From: Phycisphaerae bacterium
GTDB taxonomy: Bacteria; Planctomycetota; Phycisphaerae; UBA1845
Length of the DNA stretch: 64,000 nucleotides
Assembly: GCA_963666835.2 (NCBI GenBank)
Contig: CAXXGO010000001.1
Coordinates: 1,248,001 to 1,312,000 of the forward strand
Direction: 5' to 3'
Shown here: positions 60,765 through 64,000 of the stretch, one piece after another
Position numbering within the stretch: the stretch's first letter is position 1
Layout of the letters: each line of letters begins with the position of its first letter
Translations under genes and position numbers: made by a program
Notes under the pieces: generated by a model
What the model was told of the DNA's origin: nothing
Databases searched by the model: none
The model's input: the letters and a program-made list of their open reading frames with translations, nothing else

Positions 60765-61692
60765 GTAGGGCACGGTCGAGGTACGAGACCTGCCGCCGCC
60801 GGTTCGTTTGCCACGGTCCCGGTTCGTTTGCGACGGAGGTTTCGGATTACGTGGCTGACTTGGGGGCGAGGATCGCGTGTTGAATCGCGGTGGACGCCGC
60901 GGGCTGGGAAGAGCTGTCGCCCCCTGGCGGGGGCTGGAGATGCGGGGTCGGGTGTTGTGAAATCGTTGAGTGGCGCGCGAGGTCGGATGTTGTGAGAACG
61001 TCGCGTGGCCCGGCGAGGTTGCGGCAGGTCTCGTGCCTCGACCTGCCCTACAGGAGTGCCGTATTAGCCCGTCAGGGCGGAAGGTCTTCGAAGCCCGTGG
61101 CGTAAGCCACGGGAACGCGGGCGTTTGGTGAACGAAGCCCCGTCAGGGGCGGCAGATGCGAGGTCGGGTGTTGTGAAACCGTCGCGTGGCCCGGCGAGGT
61201 TGCGGCAGGTCTCGTGCCTCGACCTGCCCTACAGGAGTGCCGTATTAGCCCGTCAGGGCGGAAGGTCTGCGAAGCCCGTGGCGTAAGCCACGGGAACGCG
61301 GGCGTTTGGTGAACGAAGCCCCGCCAGGGGCGGTACTCGGTAAGGACGGCATTCGATATGTCGCATACGTGGCAGCCACGAACGTTCGAGAAAGAGTACG
61401 CGGTGCTGCTCGCGTGGCGCGGCGAGGTTGCGGCAGGTCTCGTGCCTCGACCTGCCCTATAGGAGTGCCGTATTAGCCCGTCAGGGCGGAAGGTCTTCGA
61501 AGCCCGTGGCGTAAGCCACGGGAACGCGGGCGTTTGGTGAACGAAGCCCCGCCAGGGGCGGTACTCGGTAAGGACGGCATTCGATATGTCGCATACGTGG
61601 CAGCCACGAACGTTCGAGAAAGAGTACGCGGTGCTGCTCGCGTGGCGCGGCGAGGTTGCGGCAGGTCTCGTGCCTCGACCTGCCCTACAGGA
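60765..61692. repeat. composite REP/IS200-end tandem array (BIME-like)
   Basis: ~152-bp core at 61001, 61182, 61410 and partial 61638 (periods 181, 228, 228); GTAG REP on minus strand at 61023-61051, 61204-61232, 61432-61460, 61660-61688 and inverted at 60765. Confidence 0.92.
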
Positions 61693-62148: not shown

Positions 62149-62526
62149 GCGGCACTGCAAACGGGTGGCGTATCGCTTTAGCGGCGGGGGACTCCGCAAT
62201 ACGCCGAAGGCCGGGTGGCCCATGGCTTTGGCCGTGGCGGACTGGCTGGCCGGCCGGCACATCTTCTTGGCGGAGGGGAACTCCTCAATACGCCGAAGAT
62301 AGTGACATATGTCCACCGCGACCGTGTGGCGATCACCGGGGGCTTTGCCCCCAGACCCCCAAGGTTTGTCGCTTGGGAGCCAGAACAGGCCAGGGAGAGC
62401 GAGAGCCCGCCGTGCATGCAGACTCCCGCGCCTGTCCCGGCACTGGTACGAGCGCTCGGGGTGCTCCTCAGCAGAGCCCTGTCCTCTCGACCAGCACACA
62501 CAAGTCTGACGTGCTGTGCCATCGAG

Positions 62527-63300
62527 TCAAGCATGCTGGCCCTCCAACTCATGATCGATCTCCAGGTACTCCTGAACCAGGAAGATGCTGCAACCTAAAG
62601 CATGGGCTGTCTCCTTTGCCGTCAGCCCCTGAAGATGGCAGTGGCGGACGCGATCGTACTGGCCCAGGTAACGATCCACAGCCTCAAGGCTGTGGTACGT
62701 TTCCCGAGCCACTTCGTTAGCCGCTTTGCCTTCTGCGTAATGTTTGAAACAGATGATCCGTTTGTGCGTAAGCCCTGTGCCGACATCGTGGACAGTAGCG
62801 CGACGTGGGACGATCTGACCGGTCTCGCGTTCGTACGCCGCCAACAATCGCGAGACGTCCGACGCATTGACTGCTAACAACTCCGAGAGATCAGAGTTGG
62901 ACAGAACGCCCCCTTGTTCGTACGCCTGTCGGCATAACCTCAAGCTCTTTTGTAAGAGCAACTCTCCACGTCCCTTCTTCTGCAAACGCATCTCGATATC
63001 CTCGAAGGTACTCACGTCCAAGACCACCGGAAGCAGATCGGTATCCTCAATCCGTCGACGCTGACTCGGGGGATCTGCGCTGCTGATCGCCATCCAGAGT
63101 ATCTGACCATGTTGGATATGCTCCTTCGGGAGAACGTGGGCACCGATGACCTCAAGGATCATCTCTGCGCACAGGTTGCGAATCCGTGGGCCGCCTATGC
63201 GTGGAAACTCCGTTTCGATGCGGTGAGCCAACACGTTTCTCAGCGTTTTCGCCTGCAGGGGACTGTATCTTCTGCTGTTGGTGTCTCGCGGCTTACCCAT
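62527..63300 (-). CDS. DUF1670-like protein
   Basis: RLCRQAYEQGGVLSNSDLSELL; VPRRATVHDVGTGLTHKRII; ARETYHSLEAVDRY. Confidence 0.85.
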   Translation of the reverse strand: MGKPRDTNSRRYSPLQAKTLRNVLAHRIETEFPRIGGPRIRNLCAEMILEVIGAHVLPKEHIQHGQILWMAISSADPPSQRRRIEDTDLLPVVLDVSTFEDIEMRLQKKGRGELLLQKSLRLCRQAYEQGGVLSNSDLSELLAVNASDVSRLLAAYERETGQIVPRRATVHDVGTGLTHKRIICFKHYAEGKAANEVARETYHSLEAVDRYLGQYDRVRHCHLQGLTAKETAHALGCSIFLVQEYLEIDHELEGQHA

Positions 63301-64000
63301 CGGATCTTCCCTCTTCACCGAGCTCCTTTTTCCCCCCGCCACAACAACCCAGGCGCATCAGTTCTTCCAGGTGATAGCCCATGTTCTTGTCGACCGCGCA
63401 TTCGTCGAGGAGATCAAGGTACTGTTGTACCAACCGCTTGCCTCTCCGCAGAAGGAAGGCGATTTGCCCGACCTGCATACCTTTCTTTGCCAACTGCGCA
63501 CAACGGGTGAATGTCGAGACGTAGTTCGCTACAGCCGCCGGTGAATGGCGAAGCATGGTGCAGATCTGTGAGGTCGTCTTTCCCTCCAGAGCCAAACGCA
63601 CGATTTGGCTGCGATGAGTCAACACGGGACCAAGATCGTGTACGATTCCTCGCAGAGGAATAAGCACCCCGGGATACGCACTCCGGAGAGCGTTCAAATC
63701 GCGCGTAATGGTTCGTGGCGTAACAAAGAACATCCGGTAGGCCAGATCTTCGCGCGTGAGCAGCCCACCTTGACTCAGGGCTTCTTGGCAAAGCGGTGGG
63801 ATGCGGGCTTGTCGAAAGCCGACCGGCCCCTCCTCCTCCAGAAGTCGATCATCCTCTGCACCTCGGTGGATTGTCAGGCACACGTTCTGCTTCTGGCATT
63901 CGCAGACGGGTTTCCCGGCAGGCTCGTCGGCGTCGACGACGACCAAGCCAATCTTGCCAGGTGGGGCCTTGCCGGCGTGTTCATCGAGGTACGGGAAGTA
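63293..64000 (-). CDS. DUF1670-like protein (5'-partial)
   Basis: LCQEALSQGGLLTREDLA; IPLRGIVHDLGPVLTHRSQIV; HSPAAVANY; frame open to the window end (YFPYLDEHAGKAPPGKIG). Confidence 0.85.
   Translation of the reverse strand, partial: YFPYLDEHAGKAPPGKIGLVVVDADEPAGKPVCECQKQNVCLTIHRGAEDDRLLEEEGPVGFRQARIPPLCQEALSQGGLLTREDLAYRMFFVTPRTITRDLNALRSAYPGVLIPLRGIVHDLGPVLTHRSQIVRLALEGKTTSQICTMLRHSPAAVANYVSTFTRCAQLAKKGMQVGQIAFLLRRGKRLVQQYLDLLDECAVDKNMGYHLEELMRLGCCGGGKKELGEEGRSDG

Follow-up and report, generated by a model that had tools for sequence, protein, structure and literature searches.

A DUF1670 gene pair in a recently active insertion sequence without a recognised transposase type

Introduction

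The IS1111/IS110 elements have subterminal inverted repeats (with terminal extensions of 7 and 3 bp in IS1111) and a downstream non-coding region, and insert in one orientation and without duplication into repetitive extragenic palindromic (REP) targets; their seekRNA is essential and matched to the target (PMC11187229). The strand-biased circularizing elements (SEs) and Tn554 use two related recombination proteins, are specific for their targets and leave the spacer whole on one side, and SEs have four genes, a recognisable RHRY tyrosine-recombinase domain and a 6-bp spacer that is carried from hop to hop (PMC10214605). RIT elements are multi-copy units of about 3.5 kb with three adjacent tyrosine recombinases, overlapping paralogous genes and inverted repeats near the ends (PMC3414803). 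Here we describe an insertion sequence (IS) at the right end of a 64,000-nucleotide (nt) stretch of the genome of a Phycisphaerae bacterium (assembly GCA_963666835.2, contig CAXXGO010000001.1, positions 1,248,001 to 1,312,000; hereafter the window). The element carries a pair of overlapping DUF1670 genes, orfA and orfB, followed by a structured RNA.

The layout of the element resembles that of IS1111/IS110 in the subterminal inverted repeats, the downstream non-coding region, the single orientation, the absence of duplication and the REP targets, with end extensions of 8 and 5 bp. However, the element has two paralogous genes and neither a DEDD/RuvC nor a PF02371 domain, and its RNA is optional and shows no target match. 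The likeness to SEs and Tn554 lies in the two related proteins, the target specificity and the undivided spacer, but the spacer is 3-4 nt long, the left triplet is fixed and PF00589 has no match. The overlapping paralogous genes, the multiple copies and the inverted repeats near the ends are RIT-like, but there are only two genes in 1,913 bp. Absence of duplication, fixed orientation, palindromes near the ends, hairpin-associated targets and small non-autonomous derivatives are features in common with IS200/IS605 and with REP-associated Y1 HUH transposases (RAYTs) and their REPs. In comparison with IS200/IS605, however, the element lacks a Y1_Tnp/HUH domain, its ends are inverted repeats, and its target is a full palindrome rather than a tetranucleotide. 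Unlike DDE insertion sequences (IS630, IS3 and others), it has subterminal repeats and no target duplication or DDE domain. By the defining protein tests the element falls outside the IS110/IS1111, RIT, HUH and DDE families, and it is a recently active insertion sequence without a recognised transposase type. Literature searches for DUF1670 and PF07900, with ISfinder, subscription papers and supplements outside their scope, returned no paper naming the family, and nothing was found on the element or its RNA as judged by titles and abstract openings.

Results

Extent, copies and target of the element

The element is 1,913 bp long and extends from 62298 to 64210 in extended numbering, 210 bp beyond the window end (Table 1), which corrects the limits of 62335-64000 given by an earlier, sequence-only reading of the window. 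The termini are TACCTTCC at the left and ACTATC at the right, and the copies of a 15-bp inverted repeat that contains the palindrome GACATATGTC are set in by 8 bp at the left and by 5 bp at the right. The two DUF1670 genes are the whole gene content of the element, and 66 bp separate its left end from orfA. A BLAST search of the region against the whole genome showed six full copies over three contigs. Between the strict ends, three of the copies are identical and the other three differ by 3-4 nt.

In each of the six copies the insertion point is one and the same base of the hairpin that ends a REP-like repeat, the orientation does not vary, and there is no duplication. The target in the source genome (G000) is the hairpin ACGCC|TNC GGCGT, cut between the left arm and the spacer; the arm is ACGCC (once ATGCC), and the spacer is TTC in five copies and TAC in one. 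Among the ends of the host repeat in the genome, 54 are empty, 7 are filled (six by elements and one by a scar) and 12 are of other forms. The repeat matches Acido-Lenti-1 weakly, under the gathering score. In the public run X3, one contig with two ambiguous letters links both flanks of the window site and omits the 1,913 bp. In runs X2 and X3, loose element ends are found at repeat ends that carry no element in G000 (one matches exactly, one with a mismatch). The four public runs represent no more than two samples, and the assembly itself may come from one of them. No right-to-left back-joint of a circle was present in the contigs of these runs, which drop rare forms. The six copies, the empty repeat ends and the empty allele bear out the sequence-only proposal of a mobile multi-copy unit with empty sites, and this is almost certainly a real and active insertion sequence.

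Table 1. Features of the element and its surroundings. Positions are in the window unless prefixed; L001 is the locus extended past the window end, and G000:C1 is the contig in the source genome.
Feature	Position	Strand	Remarks
Complete insertion sequence	62298..64000 in window; G000:C1:1310298-1312210	minus	six copies, empty allele
Left-end part of element past window	L001:6001-6210		terminal TACCTTCC
Left 15-bp subterminal inverted repeat TGACATATGTCCACC	L001:6188-6202		8 bp inside left end
Right end	62298..62317	minus	inverted-repeat copy 62303-62317 with palindrome GACATATGTC, then terminal CTATC
orfA, DUF1670, 283 aa	63293 to 64144 (extended numbering)	minus	start L001:6144; first 48 codons past window
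orfA conserved residues	gene 63293..64000 in window	minus	R165, H177, R178, H200, Y208
orfB, DUF1670, 257 aa from its ATG	62527..63300	minus	overlaps orfA by 8 bp
orfB conserved residues			R167, H179, K180, H203, Y211
Structured RNA core, two long stems and single-stranded tail	62363..62496	minus	covariation; no Rfam match
Predicted sigma-70-type promoter	62503..62530	minus	-35 TTGACT overlapping orfB stop, 16 bp, -10 CAGACT
G/C hairpin GGGGGC-AAA-GCCCCC	62338..62352	minus	after RNA core; variable or missing in relatives
Left target arm ACGCC and ~200-bp REP-like host repeat	L001:6211-6422		beside left end
Right half of target palindrome, spacer TTC and arm GGCGT	62290..62297	minus	beside right end
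Tandem mosaic of REP-like repeats	60990-61690		motif starts 61024, 61205, 61433, 61661

A second copy (L001:13276-15188) lies 7 kb from the window copy (L001:4298-6210; together G000:C1:1310298-1321188) in the opposite orientation, with the left ends facing inward. A cluster of membrane-protein-like open reading frames (ORFs) with CxxC motifs is located between the two copies, and the facing pair could be a composite unit or an inversion substrate.

Ends and targets of the relatives

Comparisons were extended to 89 loci of close relatives (9 from genomes and 80 of 433 metagenome hits) with 53-68% identity in orfB. The relatives have common ends, with subterminal inverted repeats around GACATATGTC. 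The left end was identified in 53 of the 58 relatives reaching that far, 52-302 nt before orfA and with the same layout as in the window element, and the right end in 59, the last three bases being ATC in 49/57. A palindromic target (arms of at least 4 bp, 3- or 4-nt spacer) was rebuilt in 28 of the 33 relatives with both flanks, whereas five fail. The spacer in the 28 is 3 nt in 25 and 4 nt in 5 (two counted twice), and the cut is left of the spacer in all of them. The prevailing target is GCCCC|NNN GGGGC, and variant arms remain self-complementary (GTCCC/GGGAC, TCCGCC/GGCGGA and GCCCT/AGGGC). Flanks cross-paired between loci formed a palindrome in 557 of 1,056 cases, indicating that the palindromic target is largely one consensus.

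Two features of described systems were considered and rejected. Among 55 relatives, the first base of the target that follows the cut is T in 40, G in 8, A in 6 and C in 1, so a fixed CT core as in IS110 is ruled out. The left-end triplet is nearly fixed (TAC in 7/7 genome junctions and 40/53 relatives), which rules out a carried footprint of the SE kind.

The family is patchy, occurring in 10/201 genomes of the order and 3/301 of the phylum, one of these three under the cut-off. The same ends were found in hosts labelled Thermoanaerobaculia, Deltaproteobacteria, Lentisphaeria and Planctomycetota, and no relatives were found in the viral contigs or the plasmids searched.

Gene-less derivatives

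The genome also contains gene-less derivatives with the ends of the element, namely four of 49 bp, two of 118 bp and two single-core scars of 25 bp. Most of them sit after a CCC arm, at the cut point of the full element, and a reversed-genome control gave 0. One lies in a repeat whose empty form occurs at window 61315 and 61543. Most derivatives use the sister core GACAATTGTC, which is also present at the left end of the full element in another genome (G492). The derivatives share the ends of the full element and, in most cases, its cut point, which suggests that nothing beyond the ends is needed in cis.

At one site (G000:C5:242189-242230), two right-end outer parts are fused head to head at the GACATATGTC palindrome; together with the two 25-bp scars, this join suggests recurrent deletion at the palindromic core. 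At another (G000:C6:1881239-1881287), a lone 49-bp right end is joined directly to a REP-like repeat. The tandem mosaic in the window includes empty targets of the 49-bp mini-element and is flanked by ORFs that we take to be aldolase-like and thioesterase-like.

The DUF1670 proteins

Pfam assigns both proteins to DUF1670 with E-values of 1.8e-37 (OrfA) and 1.9e-49 (OrfB). The proteins are about 26% identical, and this, with the 8-bp gene overlap, confirms the overlapping paralogous pair of the sequence-only reading. The motifs it quoted are present in both proteins: QGGLLTREDL in OrfA and QGGVLSNSDL in OrfB, the Arg/His motif PLRGIVHDLGPVLTH and PRRATVHDVGTGLTH, and HSPAAVANY and HSLEAVDRY, respectively. 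The AlphaFold2 model of OrfB, with a predicted local distance difference test (pLDDT) score of 86.6, is nearly all helical. OrfA matched 1,213 clusters (50% identity) at E up to 0.001, and DUF1670 proteins that have two or about four repeats in a single chain occur naturally. In one protein (P0250) a DUF1670 domain is fused to a GGDEF domain, a fusion that may reflect domestication of a copy or read-through of an insertion.

A G-rich run followed by an A-run is found on the minus strand at window 63328-63340, shortly before the orfB start, and likewise in the 9/9 relatives printed. The orfB frame is open across these runs, so a frameshifted OrfA-OrfB fusion is possible. At 62527-62534 an ATG overlaps the orfB stop, and its frame is open to the right end in 24/35 relatives (the other frames in 3 and 7). 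In the predicted circle this frame runs open and in frame into orfA in 10/23 relatives, which are not independent, and likewise, as read, in the window element. Translational coupling specific to the circle is possible at this ATG.

Conservation analysis of 66 diverse single-domain sequences showed that R165 is present in 66, H177 in 64, K/R178 in 66, H200 in 65 and Y208 in 66. The spacing of the basic residue to the His is 22-23 and that of the His to the Tyr is 8, compared with 22-24 and 9-10 in nine tyrosine recombinases of the host. The signature conserves R, H-K/R, H and Y, but HxxR is absent. Profile alignment with tyrosine recombinases placed H200 on the LGH histidine over 55 columns with a score of 22.1, reached by 0/60 block shuffles, and hhalign gave 2% and E 0.022. 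The invariant Arg/His/His/Tyr residues, spaced much as in tyrosine recombinases, suggest that the DUF1670 pair itself is the enzyme. Catalytic subunits, as the sequence-only reading proposed, are therefore plausible on these residues; that the pair is the enzyme is judged probable, and tyrosine chemistry is slightly favoured. The pair is likely a new kind of cutting-and-joining enzyme.

Searches for known catalytic domains gave no counterpart. PF00589 matched neither OrfA nor OrfB. Foldseek gave nothing at E up to 0.001, and no tyrosine recombinase was among the top 50 fold matches listed, with the N-terminal part (model pLDDT 57) left out. Searches of PDB sequences, PHROGs, NCBIfam and the ESM Atlas (scores up to 0.81) yielded no catalytic-domain match, and the interpretable matches were helix-turn-helix (HTH) proteins. 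DEDD (RuvC) and PF02371 domains had no Pfam match to orfA or orfB at E up to 1, whereas the same library finds them in a true IS110 of the source genome. Similarly, PF01797 (Y1_Tnp) matched neither protein, and the conserved His residues are 23 apart, with no HUH motif. The sole DDE match is one of 38 N-terminal residues to IS630, at 12.7 bits vs. a cut-off of 100.

Two alternatives concern the chemistry. The element may be autonomous and the DUF1670 pair its enzyme, yet with a chemistry that is not tyrosine-recombinase-like, such as a novel His/metal-dependent or a Spo11/TopoVI-like winged-helix nuclease-ligase; we consider this unlikely. The proteins may otherwise be DNA-binding adaptors only, with the cutting performed by a host enzyme such as a RAYT or an Xer-type recombinase. 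The matches of the proteins in Pfam, PHROGs, PDB sequence and fold searches are to HTH only, the targets are REP-like hairpins, and Y1_Tnp genes occur in 5/5 carrier genomes, a survey that could not separate these alternatives. The junctions in the source genome read C|T, and RAYTs cleave at CT. However, the Arg/His/His/Tyr residues are conserved at about 30% identity, in 15/55 relatives a base other than T follows the cut in the target, and the same ends occur in hosts of all four labels given above. An adaptor role with a host enzyme is thus judged quite improbable.

The structured 3' RNA

The 234-nt 3' end of the element folds better than 200/200 shuffles (z -3.82), and the stems and the G/C hairpin quoted by the sequence-only reading are present. 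That reading placed the hairpin on the plus strand, where it exists; however, it is the minus (gene) strand that carries the conserved RNA, and the hairpin is thereby at the 3' end of the RNA. In 51 sequences picked by the RNA's own motif, compensatory changes occur in 29/36 pairs (0/500 shuffles), a shuffle figure that overstates the case because the sequences are related, and 93% of cells pair in the alignment vs. about 42% for slid controls. The covariation shows that the non-coding structure is conserved. A -35/-10 pattern is present upstream of the RNA in 32/67 relatives vs. 12/13,400 shuffles, and the -10 of the window element (CAGACT) is weaker than those in relatives. Rfam 15 has no covariance-model match over 62363-62496 at E up to 1. 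No RNA holder of the module was listed either, a result that does not bear on its expression.

The RNA module of ~135 nt is present in 45 of 59 complete right ends and absent from 14. In two relatives that lack it (L003:1800-2093 and L004:130-427), orfA is preceded by a leader of 300 nt whose hairpin-rich sequence is a different one. A model of the RNA (R1) built from DUF1670 elements only also recovers an IS110 element of the source genome, in five copies, and has matches in 10/150 other genomes. Nine of these 15 loci have a mobile-element enzyme nearby (IS110 1, rve 4, ISL3 2, IstB 1, integrase 1) and six have none; no DUF1670 gene was shown near these loci among the 50 of 66 listed ORFs scanned. 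Two matches in viral contigs are convergent to IS3-type transposases, and the plasmid search gave no real match. The IS110-family element (G000:C6:1566813-1568639 and four more copies) is ~1.83 kb long and has a 560-bp 3' region in which the RNA module is antisense to the transposase. Elsewhere (G000:C6:796203-796400) the module and its promoter pattern stand beside a lone left-end-like sequence with the GACAATTGTC core, with no DUF1670 gene nearby.

The sequence-only reading suggested that the structured end is a single-stranded DNA recognition site or a guide-like RNA. A required recognition site is not supported, since 13/14 of the RNA-less elements are in the consensus target, compared with 34/41 of the RNA-bearing ones. 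The same figures weigh against a guide of the bridge or seek kind, needed by the DUF1670 pair and given in trans where lacking. Such a guide would agree with the IS1111-like layout (subterminal repeats, downstream non-coding region and fixed target; PMC11187229), and with the promoter pattern, strong covariation and wide retention of the RNA. However, the RNA region fits its own target no better than others, with a mean longest match of 6.7 nt vs. 6.9 nt to other targets (n=22), and the module also occurs beside IS110, rve, ISL3, IS21 and integrase genes. A guide supplied in this way is very unlikely, and we hold with high confidence that the RNA is not the targeting guide. Instead, the structured 3' segment is likely transcribed separately as a passenger RNA, optional and common to other IS families. 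ISPpu9 carries a dispensable hitchhiking small RNA, Ssr9, to which the RNA described here is similar by analogy only (PMC12288879).

Discussion

The sequence-only reading expected a tyrosine recombinase gene upstream, beyond the window, and a three-gene RIT-like unit. Although the 8-bp overlap of the paralogous genes is within the 4-8 bp of RITs, the element is 1.9 kb vs. about 3.5 kb (PMC3414803), the extended contig has no such gene, the nearest PF00589 match (14 in the genome) is >100 kb away for five copies with none on the contig of the sixth, and a unit driven by an upstream recombinase is refuted for the window element by the mapped left end, leaving it a negligible chance.

We favour, with moderate confidence, a site- and orientation-specific insertion sequence in which the DUF1670 pair acts as a recombinase through its conserved tyrosine and the 3' segment is a passenger RNA. 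In the proposed mechanism, OrfA and OrfB would assemble as a 2+2 complex whose HTH domains may contact both the target arms and the inverted repeats around GACATATGTC. Together with Arg-His-Lys/Arg-His, Tyr208/Tyr211 would nick a single strand at either end of the element, and joining of the right end to the left end would yield a circle. Recombination between this circle and the target would take place at that same position on the strand and be completed by replication or by a second exchange. In this way the whole spacer would be left at the right junction.

A broader reading, which we advance tentatively, is that DUF1670 represents a hitherto unrecognised class of compact recombinases, assembled from HTH modules and acting through phosphotyrosine without an RNA, accompanied by an undescribed RNA of ~135 nt that is trafficked by many IS families. 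OrfA and OrfB would in that case form a heterotetramer (a single chain in the four-repeat fusions) and insert without scars into short palindromes using ~25 bp of end sequence, and the RNA, with its own promoter, may modulate transposition or the host.

The uncatalogued RNA module has at least five unrelated families of mobile elements as neighbours. This poses a new question on IS regulation, and cautions that a structured RNA next to a transposase is not automatically a guide. The element offers a compact experimental system with two small genes, candidate catalytic residues, ~20-bp ends, a 13-bp palindromic target and natural 49-bp mini-donors. Small proteins that insert DNA precisely and without duplication also hold interest for genome engineering. 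If the DUF1670 pair is indeed the enzyme, it would add a new class of DNA breaking-and-joining enzymes to the DDE, DEDD, HUH, serine and canonical tyrosine enzymes, and would provide a function for DUF1670.
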